Assembly (NCBI GenBank): GCA_016196885.1
Contig: JACPWU010000053.1
Location: forward strand, 1 to 32,000
DNA length: 32,000 bases
Direction of reading: 5' to 3'
Source: Chlamydiota bacterium
GTDB taxonomy: Bacteria; Auribacterota; JACPWU01
Shown here: positions 3,744 to 22,387 of the stretch, in pieces
Numbering within the stretch: the stretch's first letter is position 1
Layout of the letters: each line of letters starts with the position of its first letter
Translations under genes and position numbers: made by a program
The notes under the pieces: model-generated
Told to the model about the DNA's origin: nothing
Seen by the model: only the letters and a program-made list of their open reading frames with translations
Databases searched by the model: none

Positions 3744-3811
3744 TGTGCCAATGTGTCAATGTGCCAATGATAAAACACCTTATTTCATTGGCACATAGGC
3801 ACATAGGCACA
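3744..3811. repeat. unit-periodic intergenic hairpin HPH1 (8-nt units ATGTGCCA)
   Basis: Left arm atgtgccaatgtgtcaatgtgccaatga pairs with right arm tcattggcacataggcacataggcaca. About 27 bp with 2 mismatches and 1 G-T. Loop is roughly taaaacaccttatt. Lies between ptsH and ptsI. Confidence 0.85.
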
Positions 3812-3815
3812 GTCG

Positions 3816-4118
3816 TTACGCCTCCCCAAACTTCTTCAAAAAAACATCCTCTAACGCCTGAACAGCCAAAGCCGCATCATCTCCCTTGGCAATAATCTTA
3901 AGCCTTGTCCCCTTGGAAGCGGCCAGCATCATGACCCCCATGATGCTTTTTCCATTGACCTTCTCACCATTCTTCTCCAAAAAAATTTCCGAGTGAAAAC
4001 CATTGGCGACCTTGACCAGCATGGCCGCAGGACGCGCATGAAGCCCCAACTCATTTTGGACCAGAAGCTCCTTCACCACCCAACCCCTTTTTTCTTTTGA
4101 ATCTATTTCTCGGCTCAT
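3816..4118 (-). CDS. ptsH: phosphocarrier protein HPr
   Basis: His-15 motif GLHARPAA and Ser-46 motif NGKSIMGVM are present. The N-terminus is about 14 aa longer than usual. An internal GTG near 4079 preceded by AAAGGGG is an alternative start. Confidence 0.9.
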   Translation of the reverse strand: MSREIDSKEKRGWVVKELLVQNELGLHARPAAMLVKVANGFHSEIFLEKNGEKVNGKSIMGVMMLAASKGTRLKIIAKGDDAALAVQALEDVFLKKFGEA

Positions 4119-4119
4119 A

Positions 4120-5097
4120 CTAAGATTCTTTACGATGCACGATGTTCGACGTACGATGTACGGTTTTTTTTCTCATCTGTTCAATCAGCTCTTGGTTCAA
4201 ATCCCGGCTTGCATGATATCCCATCTTTCTCAAGCGTTGATTGAGAGCCGCCACCTCTACCAACAATGCCAAATCCCTTCCCGGCCTCACCGGGACCAAG
4301 ACATGAGGCAAATCCACATCAAAAAGGCGATAGAATTGTTCGTCCATTCCGAGCCGGTCATATTCTTTTTCTGATTTCCAATCCTCTAGACTCACGACCA
4401 GTTCTACTTCTTTTTCTTGCATGACACAACTGGCACCAAACAAGGTCTGAATATTGATAATCCCAAGTCCTCTCACCTCCAAGTGATGCTTCAGGAGAGG
4501 ATCGCCTGTCCCCAGGAGACGACCTCCCGCTGTGTACCGAACCCGCACCACATCGTCAGAGATCAAGCGATGTCCGCGCTCAATCAAACTTAAGGCGCAT
4601 TCGCTTTTACCCACCCCGCTTTCACCCCGAATCAAAACTCCCACTCCAAATACTTCCACCAAATCAGCACTCACGGCTAAAACGGCTGCAAAAATATCTT
4701 CTAGGAAAAGGGTGGCTTTATTCACCAAAATCATGGTAACAAGGGGAGAGCGAAAAACAGGAATTTCTTTTTTTTCTGCTTCCTCCACCAGTTCGGTGGG
4801 AGGAAGCATTTGCCGAGAAACGATGCAGCAAGGAACGTCTTGGTCCAGAAGTTCAATAATCCTGGAGCGGCGCAGTTGGGGATCCATGTTCTTGAGATAA
4901 ATGAGCTCCACTTTCCCCAACACCTGAACGCGACGACGAGCAAAGTAATCGAAATAACCCGCCAGCGCTAAGCCCGGGCGATTGACCTCTGCAACTTTGA
5001 TTCGACGCTTCAACCCGCCAAAGCCAGCGACCAGACGCAACTGCAGCGAATCCCGCGTCTTTTGAAAGAATTCCTCAACGGTGAATCCTTTACTCAA
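4120..5097 (-). CDS. hprK: HPr kinase/phosphorylase
   Basis: 325 aa with Walker A GESGVGKSE followed by LIERGHRLISDD and LEVRGLGIINI. TTG start overlaps the hpf stop (TTGA). The last 14 codons lie in a tandem 7-mer array. Confidence 0.93.
   Translation of the reverse strand: MSKGFTVEEFFQKTRDSLQLRLVAGFGGLKRRIKVAEVNRPGLALAGYFDYFARRRVQVLGKVELIYLKNMDPQLRRSRIIELLDQDVPCCIVSRQMLPPTELVEEAEKKEIPVFRSPLVTMILVNKATLFLEDIFAAVLAVSADLVEVFGVGVLIRGESGVGKSECALSLIERGHRLISDDVVRVRYTAGGRLLGTGDPLLKHHLEVRGLGIINIQTLFGASCVMQEKEVELVVSLEDWKSEKEYDRLGMDEQFYRLFDVDLPHVLVPVRPGRDLALLVEVAALNQRLRKMGYHASRDLNQELIEQMRKKTVHRTSNIVHRKES
4131..4163. repeat. one-armed 7-nt tandem array (TACGATG x4.7) inside the hprK 3' end
   Basis: TACGATG CACGATG TTCGACG TACGATG TACGG. 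I saw no complementary arm nearby. It encodes the hprK tail TVHRTSNIVHR. Confidence 0.75.
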
Positions 5098-5642
5098 ATC
5101 TTCACCTTCCCCACACGGGGCTCAATCAGGCCAAAATTCCCATCTTTCTTTTTATAGACTACATTCACCGACTCACTCTGAGCGTTCAAAAAAACCAAAA
5201 AGACATCATCTGATAATTTGAGTTGGGCCATGGCCTCCTCAGAAGACATGGGTTTGGTCGCAAATTTCCGAGCTCTGACAAGGTGGGGTTCATTCTCCTC
5301 CTCATCCATCTCGTCGCCATCACCAGAAGAAGTCTCAAATTCCTTCTCTTTGGTTCGATGAAATTGAAGCTTGTCCTTGTACTTTTTCAACTGGCGCTGA
5401 AGTTTGTCCATGACTTTGTCAATGGAAGCCATCACATCTTCCGTTTTCTCAGCCGCACGAATCCGCGTATGATGGACAAGAATCACCACCTCCACTTTAT
5501 GCTGATAGCGCTCAGAATCAAAAATGGCATGCGCCCCCGTGACCTTCGGAATATTCTTTGAAATGCGCTCAAGCTTTTCAACCAAATAAGACTTGGCCAT
5601 CTTGGACACTTCTTGATGCCGACTCGTAAATGTAATATCCAC
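5094..5642 (-). CDS. hpf: ribosome hibernation promoting factor, long form
   Basis: 182 aa. The N-terminal sigma-54-modulation/RaiA-like domain begins MDITFTSRHQEVS. An acidic linker and a C-terminal dimerisation-type domain (KPMSSEEAMAQL...FLVFLN) follow. GTG start preceded by AAGGAG. Confidence 0.88.
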   Translation of the reverse strand: MDITFTSRHQEVSKMAKSYLVEKLERISKNIPKVTGAHAIFDSERYQHKVEVVILVHHTRIRAAEKTEDVMASIDKVMDKLQRQLKKYKDKLQFHRTKEKEFETSSGDGDEMDEEENEPHLVRARKFATKPMSSEEAMAQLKLSDDVFLVFLNAQSESVNVVYKKKDGNFGLIEPRVGKVKI

Positions 5643-5663
5643 ACTTTTCTCCTTTGTAAAAAA

Positions 5664-5725
5664 AAGTTGTAAGTAAGAAAATAAACTCTTTTAAAACTTA
5701 GAACTTAAAACTTACAACTTAGAAC
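5664..5725. repeat. unit-periodic intergenic hairpin HPH2 (units ACTTANA, short left arm)
   Basis: aagttgtaag (5664-5673) pairs perfectly with cttacaactt (5711-5720). The right side is ACTTAGA ACTTAAA ACTTACA ACTTAGA. The loop contains AAAATAAACTCTTTTAAAACT, like HPH3/9/10. Confidence 0.6.
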
Positions 5726-5786
5726 TGCTTTTCTCAGTTGATCCTACTAGAAAAAGAAGCCACGCGTCAACTAGAACAGAACGGCA

Positions 5787-6509
5787 TTACATCGAAAATT
5801 TCTCGCCCAAATAAAGTTGACGCGCTTCAGGGTCATTGGCTAAAAATTCAGAAGTCCCCGATTTCAAAACCTTTCCTTCATAAATTAAATAAGTTCGATC
5901 CGTCACGGAAAGGGTTTCACGAACATTGTGATCCGTCAAAAGAATCCCCATGCCTTTTTTTCTTAACTTCTTCAAAATTTCCTGGACATCCAAAACAGCT
6001 ATAGGATCCACTCCTGAGAACGGCTCATCTAACATGAGAAAAGAAGGTTTCGTAACCAAGGCCCGTGTGATTTCAAGCCGGCGCCTTTCACCCCCTGAAA
6101 GGGTATAGGCCTTACGAGTTGCCAGGGACGTCAGTTGAAGTTCATCCATCAATTCTGCCACCCTCTTTTTTCTCTCAGAGCGGGACATGGGCAGCATTTC
6201 TAAAATGGCGAGAATATTTTCCTCGACGGTTAGGTTACGAAAAATCGATGGCTCTTGAGCCAGGTATCCCATCCCCAGCCGCGAGCGCGTAGACACGGGA
6301 ATTTTACTGATATCTCTTTGCCTAAAAAAAACCTTGCCAGCACTTGGAGAAATGAGCCCCACAATCATGTAGAAGGACGTGGTCTTCCCTGCCCCATTGG
6401 GCCCTAAAAGCCCCACAATCTCCCCCTCATTCACCGTGAGATTGACCTCATTCACCACTTTTTTACGGTGATAGGCCTTTACTAAATTTTCAGTTTGAAG
6501 AAGTTGCAT
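5787..6509 (-). CDS. lptB: LPS export ABC transporter ATP-binding protein
   Basis: 240 aa with Walker A GPNGAGKTT, signature LSGGERRRLEI and Walker B FLMLDEPF. Sits next to lptA/lptC. Confidence 0.92.
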   Translation of the reverse strand: MQLLQTENLVKAYHRKKVVNEVNLTVNEGEIVGLLGPNGAGKTTSFYMIVGLISPSAGKVFFRQRDISKIPVSTRSRLGMGYLAQEPSIFRNLTVEENILAILEMLPMSRSERKKRVAELMDELQLTSLATRKAYTLSGGERRRLEITRALVTKPSFLMLDEPFSGVDPIAVLDVQEILKKLRKKGMGILLTDHNVRETLSVTDRTYLIYEGKVLKSGTSEFLANDPEARQLYLGEKFSM

Positions 6510-6533
6510 GCTTGTTTTCCCTCACGTGAAAAC

Positions 6534-6613
6534 GGTCGTGAGTCGTGAGGGATGAGTCGTGAGTAAAAAATAAATACCTTAAAACTCACGACCCACGACC
6601 GACGACTCACGAC
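6534..6613. repeat. unit-periodic intergenic hairpin HPH3 (7-nt units GTCGTGA)
   Basis: Left arm: GTCGTGA GTCGTGA GGGATGA GTCGTGA GT. Reverse complement of right arm: GTCGTGA GTCGTCG GTCGTGG GTCGTGA GT. Loop: aaaaaataaataccttaaa. Lies between lptA and lptB. Confidence 0.9.
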
Positions 6614-6620
6614 TGTTTTC

Positions 6621-7109
6621 CTAAAGCCATCCCTGATCCTGAGCTGACTTCTGATCCGTAGAATATAAAATGAGCTTCGCACTCGGCTCTACCAGCATAC
6701 GGCTGTCATCTCGATAAAAAGTGATTTTATCTCCCGTAATGACATCTTCTCCTTTTTTGACCATGGGGTGCCCCGTCAACACCACTTTGCCATCTTTCTC
6801 TGTGTAAATCGCTTCTTCAGATTTAGCGCTTTTCTCTTCTTTGCGAAATCGAACATTCCCCTTTGCCAAGACTTTCTGAATGGTTTTTGTCCCGCTTTCA
6901 AAATACACCGTCATTTCATTCGCTGTCATTTTCATCCGCGGATCATCTACCACCACATCCTTGTGAAAAATCGCCATGTTCTTTTCATAATCCATGTTCA
7001 ACTCACCCTGACAGGTAATGGTGGTCTGAGGTGGGGTCTTCTCAGGAAAAGCCTGAACACAAATGGCCAAGAGAAACATCGCTATGAAAATACTTTTTTT
7101 TCTGTGCAT
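6621..7109 (-). CDS. lptA: LptA-like periplasmic LPS transport protein (OstA N-terminal fold)
   Basis: 162 aa. Signal peptide MHRKKSIFIAMFLLAICVQAF. Repeated beta-jellyroll-type pattern (MTANEMTVYF...AKGNVRF...LTGHPMVKKGEDVITGDKITF). Position is between lptC and lptB. Confidence 0.75.
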   Translation of the reverse strand: MHRKKSIFIAMFLLAICVQAFPEKTPPQTTITCQGELNMDYEKNMAIFHKDVVVDDPRMKMTANEMTVYFESGTKTIQKVLAKGNVRFRKEEKSAKSEEAIYTEKDGKVVLTGHPMVKKGEDVITGDKITFYRDDSRMLVEPSAKLILYSTDQKSAQDQGWL

Positions 7110-7120
7110 CTTTTTAATTC

Positions 7121-7621
7121 CTACATTTCCTTAAAAGCCTTCATTTCACTGGAATCCACCACCATCTTCACATTTTTATGAATGACCGCCGTCCTCTTCA
7201 GGGTCTCCCAATACATCCCTACCCCTGTGAGTTTGAAATCGCCTCGAGTAATTTCGACAGGGGCCTCGGTCCAAACATCTCGGGTATTTTTATCCACATA
7301 CCCGACAGAAGACTCAATGAAATAATCCGGTTCGTTTCTTCCATAGACAACCGCTCGAACAGGTCTTATCTCAATCTTATCATCGGATAAAAACTGGGCC
7401 TCATCTCCCTCCACCTTCCAGCGCTTTTCATTTTCAAAACCCGGCGAGACAAACCGAAAGCCCTGTGTGATTTGATCGCCGGTTGAACCTGTTTCGACGC
7501 CATTCACTAAAATCGGAAGAAAAAAAGAAGCACACAGCATACAGCGTACAGCGTACAAAATTAAAAGGCAAAAAGTTTTTCCGTCCGCTGTGCGCTGTAC
7601 GCTGAACGCTCTCTTAAACAT
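7121..7621 (-). CDS. lptC: LptC-like LPS export protein
   Basis: Synteny (kdsC-lptC-lptA-lptB) and a beta-rich body. I start it at the ATG at 7621, which overlaps the kdsC stop as ATGTTTAA. This gives MFKRAF...FCLLILYAVRCMLCASFFLPILV as the membrane anchor. Codons 7-31 coincide with hairpin HPH4. The alternative ATG at 7540 would leave too short an anchor. Confidence 0.6.
   Translation of the reverse strand: MFKRAFSVQRTADGKTFCLLILYAVRCMLCASFFLPILVNGVETGSTGDQITQGFRFVSPGFENEKRWKVEGDEAQFLSDDKIEIRPVRAVVYGRNEPDYFIESSVGYVDKNTRDVWTEAPVEITRGDFKLTGVGMYWETLKRTAVIHKNVKMVVDSSEMKAFKEM
7530..7609. repeat. unit-periodic hairpin HPH4 (7-nt units ACAGCGT)
   Basis: Left arm ACAGCAT ACAGCGT ACAGCGT AC pairs with right arm GT CCGCTGT GCGCTGT ACGCTGA. 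About 24 bp with a few mismatches. 26-nt loop aaaattaaaaggcaaaaagtttttcc. Begins 4 nt after the kdsC stop. Confidence 0.85.
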
Positions 7622-8141
7622 ATTGCGCAATCACCTCTTCCCAAACCCCCTGAGCCTTCAGAATTTTCTCAACCACCTCTCGCACGGCTCCCCGTCCTCC
7701 ACAAGACTGGGTCACATAAGAGGCAACCCTTTTCACCTCAGAAACGGCATTCTGGACTGCAACAGAGAAACCAACCCTTTTCAAAATTGAAATGTCAATC
7801 AAATCATCCCCGACATAACATACTTCCTCAGGTTGAAGCCTAAAATTTCTCAAGAGATCTTCAAACGCCTCACCCTTCTCTAAACGATTTTGATAAAGGG
7901 CATCCACCCCCAACTCTTTTGCACGTAAGAGAAGCGCCTTGGATTCTCGTGCACTGATAAAGACCGTCTTTAATCCTGCCCTCTTCGCAAGCACAATGCC
8001 AAGCCCGTCCAAGGCGTGAAAAGTCTTAAACTCTTTTCCATCGCCATCCAGGTAAATCACACCATCGGTGAGAACACCATCCACGTCGAGGGCGAGGGCT
8101 TTGATATTCCGCAAAAGCACTGAAAGAGTTTGTTTTTTCAT
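7614..8141 (-). CDS. kdsC: 3-deoxy-D-manno-octulosonate-8-phosphate phosphatase
   Basis: 175 aa HAD fold: LALDVDGVLTDG, then GDDLIDISILKRVGFSVAVQNA. Sits next to kdsD. Confidence 0.9.
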   Translation of the reverse strand: MKKQTLSVLLRNIKALALDVDGVLTDGVIYLDGDGKEFKTFHALDGLGIVLAKRAGLKTVFISARESKALLLRAKELGVDALYQNRLEKGEAFEDLLRNFRLQPEEVCYVGDDLIDISILKRVGFSVAVQNAVSEVKRVASYVTQSCGGRGAVREVVEKILKAQGVWEEVIAQYV

Positions 8142-8146
8142 AGAAA

Positions 8147-8246
8147 TTCAGAATTCAGAAGTCAGAATTCAGAAGAAAAGCGAACACGCTAAGTTTTTCG
8201 TTTTTATTCTGAATTCTGTATTCTGTATTCTGACTTCTGTATTCTG
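8147..8246. repeat. unit-periodic intergenic hairpin HPH5 (7-nt units TTCAGAA)
   Basis: Left arm: TTCAGAA TTCAGAA GTCAGAA TTCAGAA. Right arm: TTCTGAA TTCTGTA TTCTGTA TTCTGAC TTCTGTA TTCTG. The innermost 12 bp are perfect. Alternative pairing registers are possible. The loop holds a small agcg-aaca-cgct hairpin. Confidence 0.88.
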
Positions 8247-8248
8247 TT

Positions 8249-9232
8249 TTAAAAAATCCCATTCCTAATCAAATCCTGCACATCCAACATCCCCACAGGA
8301 TGATCCCTTCCATCCACCACCGGCAATTCATCCACGCGCAAATCCTTCATGACGCGGAGCGCCTCAATCGCCATTTTCCCCACCTCGATGGTCTTCGGAT
8401 GCCGGGTCATCAACTCCGAAATCAATTTCTGAAGCACCTGCGGATCTTCTTCTAGATGCCGGCGTAAATCCCCATCCGTAAAAATTCCGACCAAGCGGCC
8501 AGAATCATCCACCACATTGGCCGCTCCTCCGTGTGCCGTCGTAATACGAATGAGCACATCTCTAACGCATGTTTTCATGTGAACGATGGGGTTCATCTCC
8601 CCCGTTCTCATGATGTCTTCAACCCGCAAGGTCAATTTTTTTCCCAGACTGCCCCCCGGATGATAAAGCGCATAATCCTCTGGTTTAATTCCCTTTCGAT
8701 CTAAAAGGGCCATGGCCAAGGCGTCTCCCACCACCAGGCTCACCGTCGTACTGGCCGTAGGAGCAAGACCCAAAGGACAGGCCTCTTTTTGAATCGTGAT
8801 ATCGAGAACAATGTCCGCATTTTTTGCCAAAGTGGATTGAAGATTTCCTGTCATGCCAATGACCTTGGCCTCCATGTGCTTCAAAAAGGGCAATAAATTT
8901 TTAATCTCTTCCGTCTCCCCACTGTTAGAAATAATCAGGATGACATCTTTTTCTAAGACTGTTCCCAAATCTCCGTGGCTTGCCTCCGCTGGATGAATGA
9001 ATTGAGACGGCGTTCCCGTGCTGTTAAAAGTCGCGGAAATTTTTCTCGCAATAATACCGGGTTTACCCATCCCCGTCACAATCACCTTTCCTTCACAGTG
9101 ATAAAGGAGATCCACAGCCCTTTCGAACTCATCTCCCAACCGATCCATCAAAGCTAGAATGGCCTCTGCTTCAGTCTTAATGACCATGCGGGCAATGCGC
9201 AATGACTCTGATAATTTTTCGGCTGCTCTCAT
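8249..9232 (-). CDS. kdsD: arabinose-5-phosphate isomerase (SIS + tandem CBS domains)
   Basis: 327 aa. SIS motifs GKVIVTGMGKPG and ISNSGETEE. C-terminal CBS pair. Confidence 0.93.
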   Translation of the reverse strand: MRAAEKLSESLRIARMVIKTEAEAILALMDRLGDEFERAVDLLYHCEGKVIVTGMGKPGIIARKISATFNSTGTPSQFIHPAEASHGDLGTVLEKDVILIISNSGETEEIKNLLPFLKHMEAKVIGMTGNLQSTLAKNADIVLDITIQKEACPLGLAPTASTTVSLVVGDALAMALLDRKGIKPEDYALYHPGGSLGKKLTLRVEDIMRTGEMNPIVHMKTCVRDVLIRITTAHGGAANVVDDSGRLVGIFTDGDLRRHLEEDPQVLQKLISELMTRHPKTIEVGKMAIEALRVMKDLRVDELPVVDGRDHPVGMLDVQDLIRNGIF

Positions 9233-9267
9233 GTTTTCTCAATCTATCCTTCTTGGCAACATCTTTT

Positions 9268-9296
9268 AAATCCAAAAATCAAAATGCAAATATCAA
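9268..9296. repeat. distal left arm of composite hairpin HPH6
   Basis: The reverse complement of aaatccaaaaatcaaaatgcaaatatcaa matches 9506-9527 (ttgatatttgatttttgaattt), except for one extra 7-mer and one mismatch. It is separated from that partner by the REP-like repeat at 9302-9405. Confidence 0.6.
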
Positions 9297-9301
9297 TTCC
9301 A

Positions 9302-9405
9302 ATGATCCTTCGAGATCATCATGTGCGATGAAAGTTCTCCCCATCATGCTTTTTTTGTAGTCGCCCGATTCATCGGGCAGCCCCATAAATGGGGCGACTA
9401 CAAAA
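9302..9405 (+). repeat. dispersed ~100-bp repeat, copy A, with GTAG...CTAC Y-shaped palindrome (REP-like)
   Basis: About 94% identical to 20805-20906. The 3' 55 nt are identical. It contains the hairpin atgatc-N6-gatcat and ttttGTAGTCGcccgattcatcgggcagccccataaatggggCGACTACaaaa. That second part is an outer stem enclosing two small hairpins. Confidence 0.9.
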
Positions 9406-9423
9406 TGAGCCTGACTTTCATAG

Positions 9424-9523
9424 CAAATGACAAACCAAAATCCAAAATGATTACCAAAGATAAAGACGTAGATACACTTTGATTTTTAATATGTCATTTT
9501 GATTTTTGATATTTGATTTTTGA
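9424..9523. repeat. unit-periodic intergenic hairpin HPH6 (A/T-rich units CAAAAT / ATTTTTG)
   Basis: Left: caaatgacaaaccaaaatccaaaatga. Right: tttgatttttaatatgtcattttgatttttgatatttgatttttga (7-nt periodic). aaatgaca pairs with tgtcattt, and further partial pairings exist. The exact fold cannot be settled by eye. Confidence 0.6.
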
Positions 9524-9525
9524 AT

Positions 9526-10371
9526 TTATTTAATTCCAAACTTCCCCACCACTCCATCTAATTCCAAGACCTGTTCCAAAAGGTCTGGAAGATCCGCCAA
9601 GCGAACCATATTCGGGCCATCGCTTAAGGCATGATCGGGATCATCATGCACCTCCATGAAAAGACCGTCACATCCCGTGGCCACCGCTGCCCTCGCCAGA
9701 GGAAGAACGAAAGAACGCTCTCCCCCAGAACGATCCCCTTCGCCCCCTGGCAATTGAACACTGTGCGTCGCATCAAAAATCACAGGAAAACCAAAAGAGC
9801 GCATCACGACCAAACTTCTCATGTCACTCACCAAATTATGATACCCGAAAGAACATCCCCGTTCCGTTAGTAAAATATTCTCTGTACCTACACTTTGAGC
9901 TTTTTCAACCACATTGTACATATCCCACGGGGATAAAAACTGACCCTTTTTGATATTGATGGCCTTTGCCTTTTTGGCCACCTCGACAACCAGATCTGTT
10001 TGCCGGGACAAAAAGGCTGGAATCTGAAGAACATCGGCGACCTCAGCCACAGGAGAAACTTCCTCTATCGAATGGACATCGGTCAAAATGGAGACGCCAA
10101 ACTCCTTTTTCACCTTTGTCAAAATCTCCAAACCTTTTTTCAGACCCGGCCCTCGAAAGGAACGAACGGAACTGCGATTGGCCTTATCATAAGAAGATTT
10201 AAAAATCCAAGGTAAAGATTTATTCTTAAAAACACGATGCAAAGCCTCCGCCATTTTCACACAGTGCTCTTCACTCTCAATGACGCAAGGCCCTGCAATA
10301 AAAACCAAAGGGTGCCCTGAACCGATAGAAATCTTGCCTATTTTTACTTCTTTGACTGTTGGAGAAGTCAT
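9526..10371 (-). CDS. kdsA: 3-deoxy-8-phosphooctulonate (Kdo-8-P) synthase
   Basis: 281 aa. FKSSYDKANRSS, KKGQFLSPWDM and FDATHSVQLPGG are typical of KdsA. Confidence 0.95.
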   Translation of the reverse strand: MTSPTVKEVKIGKISIGSGHPLVFIAGPCVIESEEHCVKMAEALHRVFKNKSLPWIFKSSYDKANRSSVRSFRGPGLKKGLEILTKVKKEFGVSILTDVHSIEEVSPVAEVADVLQIPAFLSRQTDLVVEVAKKAKAINIKKGQFLSPWDMYNVVEKAQSVGTENILLTERGCSFGYHNLVSDMRSLVVMRSFGFPVIFDATHSVQLPGGEGDRSGGERSFVLPLARAAVATGCDGLFMEVHDDPDHALSDGPNMVRLADLPDLLEQVLELDGVVGKFGIK

Positions 10372-10409
10372 GAGATACCCCTATCCTACGATCAAAAACC
10401 AATCATCAC

Positions 10410-10516
10410 TAATGACAAATTCCCAATTTCAAATGACAAATAAATGTTCAATGACTCAATCTTCAATTGGACATTGGATCATTGGAAATTAATTTGTTAT
10501 TTGTCATTGGTCATTA
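10410..10516. repeat. unit-periodic intergenic hairpin HPH7 (units AATGACA / TCATTGG)
   Basis: aatgacaaataa (10432-10443) pairs perfectly with ttatttgtcatt (10497-10508). taatgac (10410-16) pairs with gtcatta (10510-16). The flanks are 7-8-nt periodic. The right arm supplies the last pyrG codons (MTNDK-stop). Confidence 0.65.
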
Positions 10517-12137: not shown

Positions 12138-12856
12138 AATATTTTCTTCACCTCCTCTAAATCTTCAGGGGTATCCACCCCGATGGAATCTTCTTGCGTT
12201 ACCATTACTTTAATTCGCCCACCTCTTTCCAAAACCCTCAACTGTTCAAGACCTTCAGCACGTTCCAGAGACGAAGGCTCACTGGAAGCCAAATCCAGCA
12301 AAAAATCCCGCCGATAGGCATAAATCCCCATGTGCTTTAACCAAGAGGGCGTTGGCCCATTTCTAAAAAAAGGAATGGGCGATCTTGAAAAATAAAGCGC
12401 AAAACCGGACTCATCACAAACCACTTTGACCACCCGTGACTCTTGAAAACCATCGGGCCCCGTCATGGCTCTGGCCAAGGTACTCATCTGGGCATCTCCC
12501 TCTAAAAGACCTTGAACCACTTTATCCACCATGGTTCCTGACATCAAAGGTTCATCCCCCTGAATATTCACAAAAATATCTCCATCCATTTTTCTCGCAA
12601 TTTCAGCCACACGATCCGTGCCACTGACATGATCCTTCGATGTCAATAGGGCCCTTCCCCCAAAAGCCTCCACCGCCTTCACAATACTCTGATGGTCACA
12701 AGCAACAATGAGATCCGTCAAAAGCCGAGCACTCTTGGCCCCTTCATAGACGTGCTGAATCATAGGCTTGCCGCAAAGATCGGCCAACACCTTTTGCGGA
12801 AACCGGGTGGAGCCAAGCCTTGCGGGAATGACTCCAATGATTTTATGAGTAGACAT
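12116..12856 (-). CDS. kdsB: 3-deoxy-manno-octulosonate cytidylyltransferase (CMP-Kdo synthetase)
   Basis: 246 aa with [19 protein letters not shown] and NIQGDEPL. The 3' end overlaps the pyrG start by 22 nt. Confidence 0.92.
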
Positions 12857-12869
12857 AATATTTACCTCA

Positions 12870-12952
12870 GTGAAGAATGAAAAATGAAAAGTGAAAAGTG
12901 AGAAAACTTGTGTTGGTTTTTAATTTTTCACTTTTCATTTTACATTCTCAAC
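12870..12952. repeat. unit-periodic intergenic hairpin HPH8 (7-nt units ATGAAAA)
   Basis: Left: GTGAAGA ATGAAAA ATGAAAA GTGAAAA GTGAGAA. Right: TTTTCAC TTTTCAT TTTACAT TCTCAAC. 12877-12897 pairs with 12925-12945 (21 bp, 1 mismatch). 27-nt loop. The right arm overlaps the gmhB stop. Confidence 0.88.
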
Positions 12953-13550
12953 TTTTTCGCTTTATCCCCATCTCCGCCTTCATGCTCTCCAAAACGCCAC
13001 TGTCTTTTAAAATCCACTCCGCCGCGCTTCCCAAATTGTCCGCAACATAATCTGGAAAAGGCCACTCATCATCATCCTCATCTAAATTCACACCTTCATT
13101 TTCAGAAAGAAGAAGAATGGTTTTACAACTTGCATTTTTTCCGGTCAGAACATCTGAAATTTTATCGCCAATTAAATACGATTTTTTCAAATCTATCCCG
13201 TACCTCTTTGCCAAATCCTTCAACATCTTGGGCTGGGGCTTGCGGCAAAGACACTTTTCCTCGGGGCGGTGGGGACAATAACTGATGGCATCCAATTCGA
13301 TTCCATCTTTTTGGAACTCTTCCACCATCCGATGATGAATGGATTTGAGCATTTCTTCCGCAATAATGCCACGCCCCACCCCTGACTGATTGGTTACCAC
13401 AAAAAGTTTAAACCCCATTTCTTTTAACAAAAGAAGGGCCGGCTTTACGCCAGCAATCAAATGGAAATTTTCGATCTTGCTGATATAACCAATATCCTCG
13501 TTCAGGGTTCCATCTCGATCCAAGAAAATTCCACGATTCTTAACTGACAT
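12948..13550 (-). CDS. gmhB: D-glycero-D-manno-heptose-1,7-bisphosphate phosphatase
   Basis: HAD motif GIFLDRDGTLNED near the N-terminus when started at the ATG at 13550, which overlaps the hldA stop by 11 nt. Zn-type CxH...CxC motif (YCPHRPEEKCLCRKP). The track start at 13586 is a TTG. Confidence 0.85.
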   Translation of the reverse strand: MSVKNRGIFLDRDGTLNEDIGYISKIENFHLIAGVKPALLLLKEMGFKLFVVTNQSGVGRGIIAEEMLKSIHHRMVEEFQKDGIELDAISYCPHRPEEKCLCRKPQPKMLKDLAKRYGIDLKKSYLIGDKISDVLTGKNASCKTILLLSENEGVNLDEDDDEWPFPDYVADNLGSAAEWILKDSGVLESMKAEMGIKRKS

Positions 13551-14523: not shown

Positions 14524-14538
14524 AAAATACCCAATGAA

Positions 14539-14624
14539 TGGTGAGTGGTGAGTAGTGAGTGGTGAGTGGTGAGTAAAAACAAAACACATTTTAAAACTCA
14601 CCCCTCACCCATCACTCCTCACCC
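14539..14624. repeat. unit-periodic intergenic hairpin HPH9 (7-nt units GGTGAGT)
   Basis: Left: GGTGAGT GGTGAGT AGTGAGT GGTGAGT GGTGAGT. Right: ACTCACC CCTCACC CATCACT CCTCACC C. Loop: aaaaacaaaacacattttaaa. 6-7-bp helices are interrupted by periodic mismatches. Confidence 0.9.
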
Positions 14625-15394: not shown

Positions 15395-15460
15395 AGATTT
15401 TTTAATGTATAACAACGTTCATGAAATTATGAAAGAAAAAAAATAGCATGCAATTTTTCT

Positions 15461-15488
15461 TTGAACCCTTAAACCTTTGAACCTTTTT
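15461..15488. repeat. one-armed TTGAACC-type tandem array at the cyclase 3' end
   Basis: TTGAACCC TTAAACC TTTGAACC TTTTT. Its 15-nt core ttaaacctttgaacc recurs as ttaaacccttgaacc at 23774-23788. tttgaacctttgaac occurs at 18838-18852. Confidence 0.7.
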
Positions 15489-17385: not shown

Positions 17386-17450
17386 TGCCAAAGTGATCTC
17401 CAAATGGTTACAATAGGCGTGTTCGTAAAGTCTGCAATACCCCAAGAAAT

Positions 17451-17478
17451 AAGCACGAAATTCGAAGCACGAAGGTTG
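17451..17478. repeat. one-armed 7-nt tandem array in the divergent promoter region
   Basis: AAGCACG AAATTCG AAGCACG AAGGTTG. A related ACGAAGCA lies at 17496-17503. Confidence 0.6.
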
Positions 17479-17527
17479 TACTCATAAGCAACCATACGAA
17501 GCATGTCTTTTTAGAAAGAGTTTTGCA

Positions 17528-18850
17528 ATGAAAAAAATAATCCTCGCTTCTCTCTTTTTACTCATGGTTCTTTCACTTCTTCAAGCTTCTCCCATCCCCC
17601 AACCCTTGATCCAATCCTTACAAGGAGAAGTCCAAATTCTTAAAACCCAGGGGAGCGAACCGGCCAAAACAGGAATGGCCCTTTCAACATCGGATATTCT
17701 TTCCACGGGACCTCATTCCTTTTGCGTGATCAAAATGGACGAAGAGAATTCCCTTCGTGTGAAGCAAAACTCCAAAATTAAAATCAAAAAAATATGGGAA
17801 GAGGTTCAAAAATCAGACGGCCGTGTGGTTCAGGAATACCGAGTGAATGTGACCCAGGGCGAGCTCACTGCCCAATTAGGAAAACTCCCCAAAGACAGCG
17901 AATTCAAAGTCTCAAGCCCTGTCGCCGTCGCAGGAGCAAAAGGAACGGTTTACACAACAAGAGTAGAAGGAGAAAGCGGGAAGACACGGGTAAGCGTTCT
18001 AGACCATGAAGTCTTAGTCGAAAGTTTGGACAGTCCTAACAAAACAGTCACTGTGCAAAAATTTAGATGGGTGGACACGGCCCCCTGGGACGAAACAACA
18101 CTCAACGCAACAGGACGCGCTCTCCTCTCCGAGGCCATTTTAGGAAAAAATTTTGCGAAACAGGCGGAACAAAATGCACAAATTCAAGCTATCGGAACAG
18201 GCCCTTCCCCAGAGGAAGCCAAATTTAAGGCTACCTACAACCTATCCAGAATCGCCCTTCAACTCCATGTAGAACCAGAAAAAACCGTCGGCGCCTATAT
18301 TTCTCAAAGCACGGAACAAACTCAAAAATTTTATCAGGCGATTGCAAAAGCACAAGTCACCGAGCCCACTCAAAAAGAAGACGGGTCCTTAGAGGCCAAG
18401 GCCCAAATCAATGTTAAAGATTTGGCAGAAGCTTTGAAACATCCCCTTTCAGGGATCACACAAAGCATCATTCCCGTCACCCTTTCCGAATACTCATCAA
18501 AATTTGGAGCGCTGGCCCGCGTGACCACACAGCGAGCGGCCCAAGTAGAAGGATATCGAAACCTCGCCGAAATCATTTATGGCGTTGTGATCGACTCAAA
18601 CACCACCGTGCAAGACTTGGCCGTAAAAAATGACACGGTTCGCACAGTTGTTCAAGGCGTGGTCAAGGGAGCCAAGGTCGTGAACACTCAATACTTCTCT
18701 GACGGCTCCGTCATTGTCTCTCTGGAAATTCAGGGAGGACTCATTCCTCAACAGTTAGGGACAACCACAGGCAATGTATTTGGACAAAATTATCTCTCGA
18801 GTCCCAGAATCGTCCAATACGATGAAATCGTAGATTATTTGAACCTTTGA
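17528..18850 (+). CDS. secreted FecR-domain protein with a C-terminal LPP20-like module
   Basis: Signal peptide MKKIILASLFLLMVLSLLQA. FecR-like segment GEVQILKTQGSEPAKTGMALSTSDILSTGPHSFCVIKMDEENSLRVKQNSKIKI. The C-terminal segment is RAAQVEGYRNLAEIIYGVVIDSNTTVQDLAVKNDTVRTVVQGVVKGAKVVNTQYFSDGSVIVSLEI. It matches the module repeated in 22396-24289. Confidence 0.75.
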   Translation: MKKIILASLFLLMVLSLLQASPIPQPLIQSLQGEVQILKTQGSEPAKTGMALSTSDILSTGPHSFCVIKMDEENSLRVKQNSKIKIKKIWEEVQKSDGRVVQEYRVNVTQGELTAQLGKLPKDSEFKVSSPVAVAGAKGTVYTTRVEGESGKTRVSVLDHEVLVESLDSPNKTVTVQKFRWVDTAPWDETTLNATGRALLSEAILGKNFAKQAEQNAQIQAIGTGPSPEEAKFKATYNLSRIALQLHVEPEKTVGAYISQSTEQTQKFYQAIAKAQVTEPTQKEDGSLEAKAQINVKDLAEALKHPLSGITQSIIPVTLSEYSSKFGALARVTTQRAAQVEGYRNLAEIIYGVVIDSNTTVQDLAVKNDTVRTVVQGVVKGAKVVNTQYFSDGSVIVSLEIQGGLIPQQLGTTTGNVFGQNYLSSPRIVQYDEIVDYLNL

Positions 18851-19610: not shown

Positions 19611-19674
19611 TTGACCAAAATGCACCCAATTGCATTTTGGTCTTGACTAAAATGCAATGGGGTGCATTTTGGTC
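19611..19674. repeat. two tandem 32-nt hairpin units, mutually inverted
   Basis: Unit 1: ttGACCAAAATGCAcccaatTGCATTTTGGTC, a perfect 12-bp stem. Unit 2: ttGACTAAAATGCAatggggTGCATTTTGGTC. The reverse complement of 19611-19642 (unit 1) matches 19645-19676 at all but 3 of 32 positions. Confidence 0.9.
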
Positions 19675-19756
19675 ACTATGGATAGAATCCAAAAAAAGCT
19701 TAAAACACTACATCACTTCGGCTCTGAGTGATCCTCAAAAAGAAAGATCTTTCGTC

Positions 19757-19784
19757 CCCAGCCCTTTGTTAACAAAGGGCTGGG
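19757..19784. terminator. perfect 28-nt palindrome between convergent genes; candidate bidirectional terminator
   Basis: CCCAGCCCTTTG-TTAA-CAAAGGGCTGGG (12-bp GC-rich stem). On the minus strand a TTTCTTTTT run follows about 10 nt downstream. It lies 35 nt after the CsgG-like stop. Confidence 0.55.
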
Positions 19785-19818
19785 TCCTCGAGATGACACA
19801 CAAACTAGTGCGTTTGTA

Positions 19819-20769: not shown

Positions 20770-20804
20770 GACCTTTAGATTTCTCCTTTCACAAATTAAT
20801 TTCG

Positions 20805-20906
20805 ATGATCTTTCGAGATCATCGTATGCAATGAAAGTTCTCCCCATCATGTTTTTTGTAGTCGCCCGATTCATCGGGCAGCCCCATAAATGGGGCGACT
20901 ACAAAA
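20805..20906 (+). repeat. dispersed ~100-bp repeat, copy B (REP-like GTAG...CTAC palindrome)
   Basis: See copy A at 9302-9405. Same orientation. Lies in the spacer between the FlgT-like and CsgG-like genes. Confidence 0.9.
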
Positions 20907-20920
20907 AGAACCTATTCTGG

Positions 20921-22063
20921 CTAAAGAGGTGCTTGTCTTTCCCCAACCCACTTCACATCAATACGGTTTTGAGATTTTGCCGTGACCGCCAAGGCAATGC
21001 CGGGAAGATTCTCTAAGTGAACATCAAAATCTTTCCAGATCGCCCCATCCACAGTCAAATCTAAAATCAAAATATTATTCACAAAACTTCTTTCATTCAC
21101 ACTCTGAATTCCTCGAATTTCTTCCAAGGTCTTGACAAGCATTTGCTTCGCAGTCGCATTCACACCACTGGCTACCACTTGAATGTTCACCACGTTATAG
21201 GCCTCGCTACGCATTTTCTCAACCATTTCACTCATCAATTTATCTGCCAATTGCCCAGCCCCGAACCGAAGGGCATCCTTAGCAGTTGGAATGCGACCGC
21301 CGCCCCTGGCTTCTCCTTCAACATCATCAGACACCATCACTTCAGCTGTATCTGTTTTAATCACCCGAGCTGAAATCTGGGAGCGGTAAGCAAAAACAGA
21401 AACGCCGTAGGGTCTAGAATGATCAATCAAATCTGCCGTGGCCTGCCCCACCACCACCATCTCTGCTCCAGATTGACGTCCCAGGGCAGCTGCTTTTTGA
21501 GGGTCGGCATAACTCAAGGCCGCATCTCTTTCCTTAATCATCTGTATCTGATTTTTGTCCACCAGAGGAAAATCCTTGGCAAGAAAAGCCCTCTCCATTT
21601 CAGTTTGAGTCACGGCACCTGCCTGCTCCAATCCATCAATCAATTCAGCAAAAATGAACATCACCCTTGGATTTTCCCGACGCTTCATCGTAATCTTAAG
21701 CGCCTTCAAATTCTTTTCCAAAAGGCCCAAGGCAACCACCGCCCGAACACGAATCACATAAAGCCCATCTTGACCTTGATTATCATTAATCACTTCATAG
21801 CTTGTGACATAACCCTTCACCTGAGAATAGACTTGATCGTCCAAAAGCTGAAAATTGCTGACCATGGTTTCAGAATCAATAATCGAACCCACGCCCTGCT
21901 CAATGGCATTCCTGAGCGCCCGATTCAAAGCCTCATCATGGGCCTGCAAACTATTTCCTACAGATTTCCCCTCAGCTTCAATCGCTGTCTCAGCAACTTG
22001 AGCAGAAAGTTGAAAACCTGAAAGCATCCCTAATAATGTAAAAAACATGATCCATCTTTTCAT
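20921..22063 (-). CDS. periplasmic FlgT_N/LPP20-like domain protein (380 aa)
   Basis: Signal peptide MKRWIMFFTLLGMLSGFQLSA. The N-terminal module is AHDEALNRALRNAIEQGVGSIIDSETMVSNFQLLDDQVYSQVKGYVTSYEVINDNQGQDGLYVIRVRAVV. It resembles the FlgT N-terminal domain. The remainder is alpha/beta with no motif I can name. Confidence 0.6.
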   Translation of the reverse strand: MKRWIMFFTLLGMLSGFQLSAQVAETAIEAEGKSVGNSLQAHDEALNRALRNAIEQGVGSIIDSETMVSNFQLLDDQVYSQVKGYVTSYEVINDNQGQDGLYVIRVRAVVALGLLEKNLKALKITMKRRENPRVMFIFAELIDGLEQAGAVTQTEMERAFLAKDFPLVDKNQIQMIKERDAALSYADPQKAAALGRQSGAEMVVVGQATADLIDHSRPYGVSVFAYRSQISARVIKTDTAEVMVSDDVEGEARGGGRIPTAKDALRFGAGQLADKLMSEMVEKMRSEAYNVVNIQVVASGVNATAKQMLVKTLEEIRGIQSVNERSFVNNILILDLTVDGAIWKDFDVHLENLPGIALAVTAKSQNRIDVKWVGERQAPL

Positions 22064-22086
22064 CTAAGTTTTTCCTTTCTTAACCT

Positions 22087-22165
22087 GTCGTGAGTCGTCG
22101 GTCGTGAGTCGTGAGTAAAAACAAATACTTTTTAAACTCACGACTCACCCCTCACGACTCAAGAC
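22087..22165. repeat. unit-periodic intergenic hairpin HPH10 (7-nt units GTCGTGA), paralogue of HPH3
   Basis: Left: GTCGTGA GTCGTCG GTCGTGA GTCGTGA GT. Reverse complement of right: GTCTTGA GTCGTGA GGGGTGA GTCGTGA GT. Loop: aaaaacaaatactttttaa. Confidence 0.9.
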
Positions 22166-22302
22166 TACTCGACCACTTCCGTCTGTTCTACCACCGTTTC
22201 ATTCATAACATCTGTATGATGCTCATGAGGTGCTTCACAACCCCAAAGATTCGTAAGAATGACAGCCACATAAGCAACACCCATCCATTTGAAAAGCTTC
22301 AT
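22165..22302 (-). CDS. 45-aa putative lipoprotein with a His cluster
   Basis: Not in the ORF track (too short). ATG 22302-22300 preceded by AAGGAGAAGAGACC; TAG 22167-22165. Sequence: MKLFKWMGVAYVAVILTNLWGCEAPHEHHTDVMNETVVEQTEVVE. It has a signal peptide plus a lipobox-like LWGC. HPH10 and HPH11 flank it. Confidence 0.45.
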   Translation of the reverse strand: MKLFKWMGVAYVAVILTNLWGCEAPHEHHTDVMNETVVEQTEVVE

Positions 22303-22323
22303 GGTCTCTTCTCCTTGTTTTAA

Positions 22324-22387
22324 CAGTCGTCAGTCGTGAATGTTAAAGGTATTGTTTATTTTTTTACTCATCCTCACCCCTCACCAC
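22324..22387. repeat. degenerate unit-periodic element HPH11 with inverted loop
   Basis: Left: cagtcgtcagtcgtgaatg. Right: actcatcctcacccctcaccac. The arms are no longer complementary. The reverse complement of the central segment is aaaaaaataaacaatacctttaa, which closely matches the HPH3 loop. Confidence 0.65.

Follow-up and report, generated by a model that had tools for sequence, protein, structure and literature searches.

Hairpins of inverted heptanucleotide arrays at the junctions of a bacterial LPS/PTS operon

Our analysis identifies hairpins composed of inverted tandem arrays of 7-nt units (8-nt units in one case) at 11 junctions of a co-directional LPS/PTS operon. The portion of the genome examined is the window, i.e. 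the whole 32-kb stretch of DNA analyzed, and within it an element of this kind occurs in every co-directional spacer of 60 nt or more (11/11), which confirms the original prediction of a hairpin in nearly every long co-directional spacer. The hairpins belong to a repeat type known from cyanobacteria, Xanthomonas and Geobacter, here outside the cyanobacteria and at unusual density. The explanation we favor, at about even confidence, is that slippage-driven palindromic heptanucleotide repeats of the STRR type colonized the operon junctions and are tolerated, possibly even used, as the transcribed hairpin folds out. The elements are probably neither essential operon parts nor classical terminators. 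They constitute a real, non-random family of unit-periodic hairpins; the design itself has already been described in other bacteria.

Architecture and folding of the elements

In each element, two tandem arrays of a 7-nt (sometimes 8-nt) unit face each other in inverted orientation across an A/T-rich loop. The eleven elements and one solitary array are located as follows (window positions, with methods in brackets).

H1, 3735..3811: 8-nt units ATGTGCCA / TGTGCCTA, in the spacer that separates the HPr stop (3816) from the ptsI start (ATG 3724) (repeat search, TRF, RNAfold)
H2, 5664..5726: weak (A)ACTTA(G/C) units in the lptB/hpf spacer (TRF; RNAfold z -1.2 to -1.7)
H3, 6528..6620: GTCGTGA units, from the first base past the lptA stop to 18 nt short of the lptB ATG (repeat search, TRF)
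H4, 7529..7610: ACAGCGT units within the predicted lptC 5' coding region (TRF, RNAfold, NCBI gene call)
H5, 8145..8247: TTCAGAA units filling the kdsD/kdsC spacer, the 3' arm stopping 4 nt from the kdsC ATG (TRF, RNAfold)
H6, 9267..9531: AAAATCA units, left arm split into 9267-9295 and 9425-9460 (TRF, RNAfold, in-silico excision)
H7, 10405..10515: degenerate AATGACA units, one arm encoding the end of PyrG with its stop (..MTNDK*) (repeat search, TRF)
H8, 12869..12953: (A/G)TGAAAA units, sited between the stop of the HAD phosphatase gene and the kdsB start (repeat search, TRF; RNAfold z -8.7/-7.1)
H9, 14535..14624: GGTGAGT units of the GTGAGTN subfamily, one arm forming the final codons of the DUF3108 gene, TGA stop included (TRF, RNAfold)
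H10, 22087..22166: GTCGTGA units, unit and loop as in H3, downstream of a 45-aa ORF (repeat search, TRF, RNAfold)
H11, 22323..22390: decayed member of the GTGAGTN subfamily (RNAfold z -0.6 to -1.6)
Solitary array, 4131..4162, minus strand: four GTACATC copies without an inverted partner, encoding a C-terminal extension of HprK (TRF, alignment)

The inverted-repeat search returned arms of 32-40 nt with 80-94% complementarity at 3744-3811, 6528-6620, 8145-8236, 12869-12953 and 22087-22165, and shorter arms at 7536-7610 and 10405-10515. TRF detected a period of 7 in both arms of H3, H4, H5, H8, H9 and H10 and a period of 8 in H1. Both the unit-periodic inverted design and the predicted positions were recovered in this way, with one revision: the CAAAAT-type element (H6) is larger than had been described, its left arm being interrupted by a 129-nt REP-doublet element (9296-9424). 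In silico removal of this insert restores a single long stem (dG -32.9 vs -17/-20). The GTAG-headed REP doublet occurs a second time in the window (20792-20913) and represents a family separate from the heptamer hairpins. The right arm of H5 contains a higher-order 21-nt repeat.

The heptamer-hairpin pattern is far beyond chance. In the proposed comparison with shuffled spacers, we counted 7 strict inverted array pairs and 18 arrays of period 7/8 in the 14 real spacers, compared to means of 0 pairs and 0.17 arrays in 200 dinucleotide shuffles. Folding with RNAfold on both strands, also proposed as a check, gave strong results against dinucleotide shuffles for 8 of 11 elements (z -5.4 to -10.3 on both strands), among them H1 (dG -39.9/-34.7, z -6.0/-5.4) and H3 (dG -49/-51, z -9/-10); H2 and H11 fold weakly on both strands and H7 on the sense strand only (z -0.6 to -1.8 for these weak folds; H7: -4.2 on the plus and -1.8 on the minus strand). 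Shifting an arm by +/-7 nt retains ~70-88% of the matches, in agreement with the suggested existence of several pairing registers. TRF detected no heptamer arrays past 24 kb in the window, as expected from the reported absence in the 26.4-32 kb segment. The elements are not an assembly artefact: over whole elements, independent assemblies (an NCBI MAG contig; Logan unitigs of three runs) agree at 100% identity, and all available assemblies are identical.

The elements match no Rfam family and, as predicted, are not ordinary intrinsic terminators, REP/BIME or CRISPR sequences. The statement that none is followed by a U-tract does not hold, because on the sense strand H2 is followed by U8 (A8 at 5658-5665 on the plus strand), which gives it a terminator-like look, and H4 by UUCUUUUUUUCUU. 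Neither are the elements strictly intergenic, as had been claimed: pyrG and the DUF3108 gene each end with codons that overlap an arm, and H4 lies inside the predicted N-terminus of lptC. The NCBI gene call for lptC (166 aa from ATG 7621) spans H4, whose loop and 3' arm code for an N-terminal hydrophobic segment of the predicted LptC; this protein was aligned with the LptC of the relative L001.

Evolution of the arrays

The fully syntenic relative L001 has the same 17-gene order (42-84% amino-acid identity). Its junctions measure 2-51 nt, and no long inverted repeats were found at them. By this comparison the hairpins were added, in the lineage of the window, to junctions that are short in L001. 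Arrays encode the tails of PyrG, DUF3108 and HprK as well as part of LptC, and in places they have overwritten gene termini. In the suggested comparison of orthologous spacers, arm complementarity is kept in Acidobacteria, and the nearest syntenic relative, L001, simply lacks the elements.

A survey of 1.93 Mb, comprising ~155 other genomes and the window, revealed 43 inverted array pairs, 36 of them outside the window and 7 within it, and 0 direct pairs, with periods of 7 (31 pairs), 8 (9), 9 (2) and 6 (1). Among the 73 intergenic period-7 arrays of the other genomes, 42 have an inverted and 1 a direct partner. The G-richer arm is the 5' arm in 30/37 pairs (p = 2e-4), and this polarity is identical on both strands.

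Arrays change by gain and loss of whole units. The sequences L048 and L147 are 99.3% identical, yet exactly one unit apart in one arm. At an orthologous site in L062, L079 and L148 (67-77% nucleotide identity) we find 5, 9 and 3 units, respectively, with unrelated loops; each genome uses one unit, AAGTTCA or AAGTTCC, in both of its arms, and in L080 and L139 nothing occupies this site. L027 and L036 have conserved arms around a diverged loop. Each arm is homogenized on its own: 5 of 7 elements differ systematically between arms at one unit position, which amounts to one mismatch per unit. The idea that changes are compensated in the opposite arm is not supported by our data, as permuting the unit order in one arm left complementarity equal or better and position-by-position compensation was not found. 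Separate homogenization argues against frequent cross-arm template switching, so that selection on the stem may be required for complementarity to persist over ~30% nucleotide divergence. Among the roles originally listed, a slippage-generated DNA structure fits best, given the one-unit difference between L048 and L147 and the individually homogenized arms.

H3, H9 and H10 have a common loop and GTGAGTN unit, which bears out the predicted shared loop core for these three; loop and unit of H2 are similar. The shared loop suggests copying between sites, which slippage alone does not account for. An unlikely alternative is that the hairpins are non-autonomous mobile elements (MITE- or REPIN-like) with tandem heptamers as TIRs, moved by a trans-acting transposase and then subject to fast concerted arm evolution. 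H3, H9, H10 and the decayed H11 (perhaps H2) would be dispersed homologous copies because of their common unit and loop core, hairpins of ~80-110 nt occupy sites where the L001 junctions are short, the same CACGAAGG arms in L035 enclose two different internal sequences, and in the Geobacter classes a single unit recurs at numerous loci, the spacing varying (PMC2700814). However, flanking direct repeats are at chance level (mean 2.0 nt vs 1.95 nt for random flanks), conserved termini are absent, and units and loops are unrelated in six elements. Furthermore, no transposase or RAYT was found in the window, and orthologous sites vary in unit number, not in presence or absence of a fixed element.

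Origin and possible roles

In the slippage scenario, which we prefer, arrays would have grown by replication slippage, fold-back or template-switch copying may have created or refreshed the inverted partner, and at least the GTGAGTN subfamily may also have spread from site to site. The elements are presumably co-transcribed with the operon, each RNA being predicted to form a register-flexible stem of ~25-40 bp. In 11/11 long spacers the element is placed between the stop codon and the next RBS. Since the stems begin just past the stop (0-13 nt) and end just ahead of the next start (4-23 nt), the insertion would loop out and bring stop and start adjacent to each other, and because of this looping-out the elements would be tolerated. 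The looped-out stem may preserve termination-reinitiation coupling and, we infer, hide untranslated RNA from Rho; the G-rich-arm-first polarity fits this reading. Secondarily, the elements may stabilize, pause or process mRNA.

It is possible, if distinctly less probable, that the hairpins were selected as intercistronic RNA structures, i.e. RNase III/processing sites, 3'-end stabilizers or pause sites that set cistron expression ratios in the manner of SRPS operons or T7 early-gene RNase III sites, with periodic arms as simply the most accessible way for mutation to produce a long stem. The exact placement between stop and RBS would agree with such selection, as would a stem length sufficient for dsRNA-specific nucleases, the conserved arms of L027 and L036, and the complementarity kept at the orthologous site in L062, L079 and L148 despite changed unit, copy number and loop. 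For STRR hairpins, roles in stability and coupling have been suggested (PMC2670836), and SRPS operons provide a precedent (PMC4423207). Against this reading, L001 has the same operon with zero hairpins, H4 is partly coding and position-specific compensation is absent. Selection on sense-strand RNA structure is also not supported by the 23 co-directional elements, in which neither stability (mean ddG 0.01 kcal/mol) nor the number of G-U pairs (47 vs 45) differs between sense and antisense. In the other genomes, divergent, convergent and co-directional spacers carry elements (6/6/26) roughly in proportion to the background (146/154/382).

That the elements act at the DNA level, as protein-binding arrays (nucleoid or global regulator, IHF/HU) or as cruciforms affecting supercoiling or replication, is quite improbable. 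The strand-independent symmetry, the occurrence in every spacer type of the other genomes, divergent promoters included, and the identical polarity on both strands are in line with it, and an IHF/HU reading has been proposed for the paired sites of G. metallireducens (PMC2700814). Yet units differ from spacer to spacer, which no sequence-specific protein fits and which makes the suggested periodic binding protein hard to reconcile, and a 7-bp period puts consecutive units on different faces of B-DNA. Also, imperfect stems with 12-30 nt loops would extrude poorly as cruciforms.

Relation to known repeats

The original prediction knew of no described class with this design, but such classes exist in cyanobacteria, Xanthomonas and Geobacter metallireducens. 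Cyanobacterial STRR 7-bp repeats (Mazel et al. 1990, as cited in PMC4692102) are described as forming hairpins in the hupS–hupL spacer of Nostoc, Anabaena and Lyngbya, with a proposed aid to transcript stability or translational coupling (PMC2670836). Like the window hairpins they are intergenic or intercistronic tandem 7-bp units in inverted arrays able to pair. The window host, unlike those of STRRs, lies outside the cyanobacteria, its closest relatives in the databases carrying the labels delta-proteobacteria or 'uncultured bacterium', and while STRRs comprise few genome-wide families, the window has at least 7 unrelated units in 20 kb, almost saturating one operon.

In Xanthomonas, GGGAATC arrays make up 70-75 inverted, convergent pairs (Rehm et al. 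2015, PMC4692102), each likewise consisting of two close heptamer arrays on opposite strands with the G-rich array first; their length differs among related genomes, the paired type is retained and the arrays are transcribed. The Xanthomonas unit is a single G-quadruplex-capable one genome-wide, whereas the window units are diverse and mostly A/T-rich, with G4 not possible. In Geobacter metallireducens, tandem heptanucleotide arrays come in pairs, one on either strand (Aklujkar et al. 2009, PMC2700814). Its class 2/3 'putative global regulator binding sites' resemble the window elements in consisting of 3-5 tandem 7-9-nt repeats per site, paired, and in lying within operons (e.g. proB–proA), and the class 3 unit MTYCTGA essentially equals the TTCTGAA of H5. 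Those sites are described as multicopy one-unit families and interpreted as IHF/HU sites.

SRPS operon stem-loops and phage T7 early-gene RNase III sites are comparable in working only: they are long intercistronic stems past stops, not unit-periodic and under evident sense-strand selection, whereas no strand bias was found for the window elements. REP/BIME/REPIN sequences are also small extragenic palindromes between operon genes, and REPs stabilize upstream mRNA. The heptamer hairpins differ from them in lacking a conserved GTAG/CGTC head and a family-wide sequence, and their internal periodicity is not of the REP kind. TAACTGA repeats of Beggiatoaceae, Cyanobacteria and Bacteroidetes are intergenic tandem heptamers adjoining start codons in phylogenetically scattered lineages (MacGregor 2015, PMC4679880); they share the CTGA core with H5, but are nearly always direct, unpaired arrays of one unit, with a single inverted case in the BOGUAY genome. 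Polymerase slippage has been put forward as the cause of an excess of heptanucleotide SSRs (Mrazek 2007, cited in PMC4679880 and PMC4692102).

Architecture of the inverted heptamer arrays

The gene blocks and the hairpins at their junctions (H1 to H11) are arranged as follows.

1916-17445, minus strand: one co-directional block carrying every gene of this interval (ptsI, HPr, hprK, hpf, lptB, lptA, lptC, kdsC, kdsD, kdsA, pyrG, kdsB, HAD phosphatase, PfkB kinase, DUF3108, CHASE2 cyclase)
19.8-23.7 kb, minus strand: second gene block
3735-3811: hairpin H1, 8-nt units
5664-5726: hairpin H2
6528-6620: hairpin H3
7529-7610: hairpin H4
8145-8247: hairpin H5
9267-9531: hairpin H6
10405-10515: hairpin H7
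12869-12953: hairpin H8
14535-14624: hairpin H9
22087-22166: hairpin H10
22323-22390: hairpin H11

The feature is real, and both the density of the hairpins and the variety of their units stand out. An inverted-repeat search recovered hairpins at the positions of the original prediction, with inverted arms of 32-40 nt and 80-94% complementarity, and an element is present in all co-directional spacers of 60 nt or longer. The arms are unit-periodic as claimed: TRF assigns a period of 7 to each arm of H3, H4, H5, H8, H9 and H10, and a period of 8 to H1. The units are ATGTGCCA, GTCGTGA, ACAGCGT, TTCAGAA, AAAATCA, AATGACA, GTGAAAA and GGTGAGT, none with a G3 tract; within the 32 kb, GTGAGTN is seen four to five times and each other unit once. 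When compared with dinucleotide shuffles, 8 of the 11 elements reach fold z-scores between -5.4 and -10.3 on both strands; the fold is weak on both strands for H2 and H11, and on the sense strand for H7. Among the 14 real spacers there are 7 strict inverted array pairs and 18 arrays of period 7 or 8, whereas 200 dinucleotide shuffles of these spacers yielded on average 0 pairs and 0.17 arrays. When the arms are shifted by one unit, ~70-88% of the matches are retained, so that several pairing registers are available, as had been proposed.

A loop core had been assigned to four elements; H3, H9 and H10 indeed combine it with the GTGAGTN unit, H11 is a decayed relative, and H2 belongs only perhaps. 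The claim that variants in one arm are compensated in the other is not supported by our data: after permuting the unit order of one arm, complementarity was equal or better. In five of seven elements (H1, H4, H5, H8, H9) one position of the unit is consistently different between the two arms (A/T in H1, T/A in H5, T/G in H9), which gives one mismatch per repeat turn (every 7-8 bp). The same pattern occurs at 13239-13309 of L027, one of the KdsA-centred loci from other genomes, and it means that each arm is homogenised separately.

H6 proved to be a genuine hairpin of larger extent than predicted, its left arm being split by a 129-nt element. In-silico excision of 9296-9424 regains a single long stem (dG -32.9 vs -17 to -20). 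This 129-nt repeat is present in two copies (9296-9424 and 20792-20913, ~90% identical to each other), the first inside the H6 arm and the second overlapping the first ~25 codons of a CsgG-like ORF. It holds a REPIN-like, GTAG-headed REP doublet (GTAGTCGCCC-N8-GGGC plus inverted copy), a motif absent from all other fetched loci. The 20-40-nt imperfect palindrome with GTAG/CGTC head that marks REP sequences belongs to this element, which is distinct from the heptamer hairpins; the latter have no common GTAG/CGTC head or consensus and are, as predicted, not REP or REPIN sequences.

Separately, two tandem 31-nt palindromes (GACYAAAATGCA-N6-TGCATTTTGGTC) lie at 19612-19675, right after the DUF3307 stop, and a perfect 14-bp palindrome (CCCAGCCCTTTGTT/AACAAAGGGCTGGG) lies at 19757-19784 in the same convergent spacer. 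These make up a separate hairpin family, possibly of bidirectional terminators.

The heptamer hairpins are not assembly artefacts, because the window is reproduced with 100% identity by independent assemblies: contig JACOUD010000052.1 of the NCBI MAG GCA_016178005.1, and Logan unitigs built from three sequencing runs. Several of these sequences run across whole hairpins (H2, H4, H5, H7 and H8), and others stop within arms. Exact-protein look-ups returned 100% identical contigs only.

Gene boundaries and the transcribed strand

The elements were described as intergenic; strictly intergenic they are not, since arms reach into the coding sequences of PyrG, DUF3108 and lptC. The last codons and the stop of both PyrG (..MTNDK*) and DUF3108 (..GEE*) are supplied by a hairpin arm. 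The NCBI call for lptC begins at ATG 7621 and overlaps the kdsC stop, so that H4 would be translated. Alignment with L001, the closest, syntenic relative, suggests that H4 sits in the predicted lptC 5' region, where its T-rich loop and 3' arm would encode the N-terminal hydrophobic anchor LptC needs. A solitary GTACATC x4 array at 4131-4162 (minus strand), without inverted partner, adds eight residues to the C-terminus of HprK in comparison with its L001 orthologue.

On the mRNA strand the hairpins begin 0-13 nt past the stop codon, or overlap it, and end 4-23 nt ahead of the next start codon. They are also a practical nuisance: arms interrupt short-read contigs, and ORF callers extend genes through the arrays. 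Because the stop-free arrays are open in all three frames, calls over-extend the N-termini of ptsI, pfkB and lptC (starts at 3778, 14601 and 7630, respectively), running through the hairpin arms. A use of the units as three-frame stop codons was rejected, several arms having no stop at all; so was SD/anti-SD mimicry, which suits GGTGAG/GGAGTG-type units only. An unlisted 45-aa ORF (MKLFKWMGVAYVAVILTNLWGCEAPHEHH...) with a lipoprotein-like signal occupies 22170-22307 (minus strand), with H10 and H11 on either side. ARAGORN found no tRNA in the window.

Selection of the hairpins for processing or stabilising mRNA appears unlikely. Among 23 co-directional elements, sense and antisense RNA differ in stability by a mean of 0.01 kcal/mol (Wilcoxon p = 0.77); of ~820 pairs, 47 are G-U on the sense and 45 on the antisense strand. 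This comparison of stability and G-U content gave no sign that the transcribed strand is under selection. It also served as the indirect test for the SRPS / RNase III processing class, with the same negative outcome. The symmetry is still compatible with an RNA role, because ~94% of the pairing is Watson-Crick whichever strand is read.

The hairpins are not ordinary intrinsic terminators, as had been concluded: a consensus scan was unenriched (30 hits vs 23 +/- 5 in shuffles). The accompanying statement that no convincing U-tract follows them does not hold, a sense-strand U8 standing directly after H2 and a U-rich tract after H4. U-tracts occur at these two only, and that of H4 codes for Phe-Phe-Leu of LptC. 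Promoter-like hexamer pairs are few within the hairpins; regionally they number 34 vs 22.6 +/- 5.3, an excess of ~2 sd.

A scenario of MITE-like mobile elements is improbable. Internal sequence is common to the GTGAGTN subfamily, and to that subfamily only. No transposase, RAYT or integrase genes were found in the window, and target-site duplications are lacking, the longest flanking direct repeats averaging 2.0 nt vs 1.95 nt for random flanks. The original separation from MITEs stands on this evidence, as does that from CRISPR arrays, where 23-50-nt direct repeats alternate with unique spacers in contrast to the contiguous 7-8-nt units in inverted pairs found here. Rfam gave 0 matches at gathering threshold over the entire window.

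Relatives and survey of other genomes

Genome and metagenome scans with KdsA for relatives with orthologous spacers found none above 71% amino-acid identity, and the closest loci are labelled 'uncultured bacterium' or 'delta proteobacterium'. L001, the closest genome found, has an identical 17-gene order with 42-84% amino-acid identity. Its junctions at the hairpin-equivalent sites measure 2-51 nt or overlap, with the exception of a 176-nt spacer at the H9 site. Long inverted repeats are absent from L001 and, in the corresponding region, from the loci L002 and L005; the hairpins are therefore lineage-specific additions and are not required for the operon. The junctions to which they were added are tight and probably translationally coupled. 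L001 also carries (14165-15295) a 376-aa gene between lptB and hpf, the position of rpoN in E. coli; at lptB/hpf the window has merely a 144-nt spacer (5643-5786) with a promoter-like site, the weak hairpin H2 and the U8 tract.

One detector was run on ~160 KdsA-centred loci (1.93 Mb in total) from Acidobacteriota, Verrucomicrobiota, Planctomycetota, Myxococcota, delta-proteobacterial lineages and others. It found 43 inverted pairs, 7 in the window and 36 in other genomes (among them Acidobacteriota, Verrucomicrobiota, Myxococcota and delta-proteobacterial lineages); gapped direct pairs were absent. The period was 7 in 31 pairs, 8 in nine, 9 in two and 6 in one. Outside the window, an inverted partner lies within 150 nt of 42 of the 73 intergenic arrays of period 7, and a direct partner accompanies one; among the 28 arrays of period 8 the figures are 10 and 1. 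Nearly all pairs are intergenic. Co-directional, convergent and divergent spacers hold 26, 6 and 6 of them, against a background of 382, 154 and 146, with no clear preference for a spacer type once the window is removed. The G-richer arm is the 5' arm in 30 of the 37 pairs compared (p = 2e-4), including 6 of the 7 strict window elements, and the purine-richer arm in 29 of 38. Because the element is palindromic, this polarity is identical on both strands. The window and the survey together indicate that intergenic heptamer repeats typically occur not as lone arrays but as hairpin-forming inverted pairs, always with the polarity G-rich arm first. The GTGAGTN family itself recurred among the fetched loci as one solitary array, in L122 only.

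Comparisons between related loci reveal how the pairs evolve. L048 and L147 (99.3% identical) differ by exactly one unit in one arm. Between L027 and L036 (86.5% identical) the arms are kept and the loop has completely diverged; the left arm of L027 consists of GTGCTGA and its right arm corresponds to GTCCTGA, so each arm was homogenised on its own. L062, L079 and L148 (67-77% identical) share an element in a common divergent spacer, with 5, 9 and 3 units, unrelated loops and fold z-scores of -7 to -9. Its unit is AAGTTCA or AAGTTCC, and within each genome both arms match. L080 and L139 have an unstructured sequence of 53-55 nt at this site. These comparisons show that arrays change by whole-unit slippage and that concerted evolution acts within each arm; they indicate that the inverted pair evolves in whole-unit steps and persists at orthologous sites despite sequence turnover. 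Arm complementarity is kept over long periods, which requires either that the stem is selected or that the arms are occasionally copied from one another.

Known heptamer repeats and a proposed slippage scenario

The original prediction knew of no described class with this design. This claim fails: inverted heptamer arrays are already present in papers on cyanobacterial STRR (short tandemly repeated repetitive) sequences, Xanthomonas and Geobacter metallireducens. The 7-bp STRR repeats can form hairpins; several cyanobacteria have them in the hupS-hupL spacer, where a role in stabilising the transcript or in coupling translation has been suggested (PMC2670836); in the Nostoc hupS-asr0689 spacer, TTGTCAG arrays stand together with ACTGAC-type arrays (PMC2408588). 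The window shares with them the tandem 7-nt units and the inverted, intercistronic arrangement able to form a hairpin, as of the hupS-hupL type. Unlike the STRR hosts, its host is not a (heterocystous) cyanobacterium, being a groundwater-type MAG (GCA_016178005.1) with a gene set of HprK, LptABC and Kds. STRR families are few and each is highly repeated genome-wide, a feature viewed here through 32 kb. Two Xanthomonas genomes each carry 70-75 convergent inverted pairs of GGGAATC arrays, which differ in length between the genomes and keep the paired type (PMC4692102). Those pairs resemble the window elements in their two nearby, convergent, opposite-strand arrays with the G-rich one first; the window units, in contrast, are not GGGAATC/GGGGAYT and lack G3 tracts for a G-quadruplex.

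In G. metallireducens, paired opposite-strand sites of three to five tandem 7-9-nt repeats were hypothesised by the authors to be IHF/HU sites (PMC2700814). The likeness to classes 2 and 3 of these sites, which have variable spacing, is close, and the Geobacter unit MTYCTGA is essentially the H5 unit. For the window hairpins, with a different unit at most junctions, protein-binding arrays or cruciforms are a very improbable explanation. CTGA/TCAG-containing units are seen in unrelated genomes (TTCTGAA in H5, 8145-8247; L002 5949-6107; L003 1163-1238), and the CTGA core is also part of the Geobacter class 3 unit MTYCTGA and of the Beggiatoaceae unit TAACTGA, a recurrence that may be chance.

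The inverted heptamer-array design is thus described, yet without a name, a general survey or an established function, and the window hairpins are a variant of this known, poorly understood kind of repeat, not a new class. We favour, with about even confidence, a scenario of STRR-type palindromic heptanucleotide repeats, a slippage-driven DNA-level class that colonised operon junctions and is tolerated by folding out. Arrays would lengthen and shorten through slippage, the inverted partner would be created or refreshed via fold-back or template-switch copying, at least one subfamily would also have spread among sites, and the operon junctions would have been colonised in the lineage of the window. 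Such elements may be tolerated because the transcribed element would fold into a long stem that brings the stop and the next start codon adjacent and shields untranslated RNA from Rho; since the G-rich arm is transcribed ahead of it, the C-rich arm would be paired as soon as it emerges. Secondarily, the elements may stabilise or process mRNA. Heptanucleotide repeats are reported to be the most abundant long SSRs in most bacterial genomes, an excess for which slippage of the polymerase has been put forward (Mrazek 2007, as cited in PMC4679880 and PMC4692102).

Three regularities are seen here across phyla and were not found stated in the searched literature: the arrays come by default as inverted pairs, the G-rich arm leads, and each arm is homogenised on its own. 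Xanthomonas, Geobacter and the cyanobacteria extend the surveyed phyla via the literature. A bolder proposal, which we regard as doubtful, is that G-rich-first inverted 7-8-nt array pairs form a pan-bacterial, self-organising element class with a dedicated generator or a general function. If so, it would explain most of the intergenic heptanucleotide excess, and the window would be the densest example known. A possible function would be that of register-shifting RNA hairpins insulating untranslated operon RNA from Rho, with unit number tuning stop-start translational coupling. Should the hairpins modulate coupling, stability or Rho access, unit number would be a cheap, reversible knob for operon stoichiometry in many phyla; if neutral, they would offer a clean natural system for slippage and palindrome maintenance.

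A second very dense carrier is L035, a locus of an Acidobacteriota MAG (1-17939), with five inverted 7/8-nt array pairs in 18 kb. It also carries a 13-copy solitary GGGTTTC array (1525-1622), and CACGAAGG arms at two loci with different internal sequences.
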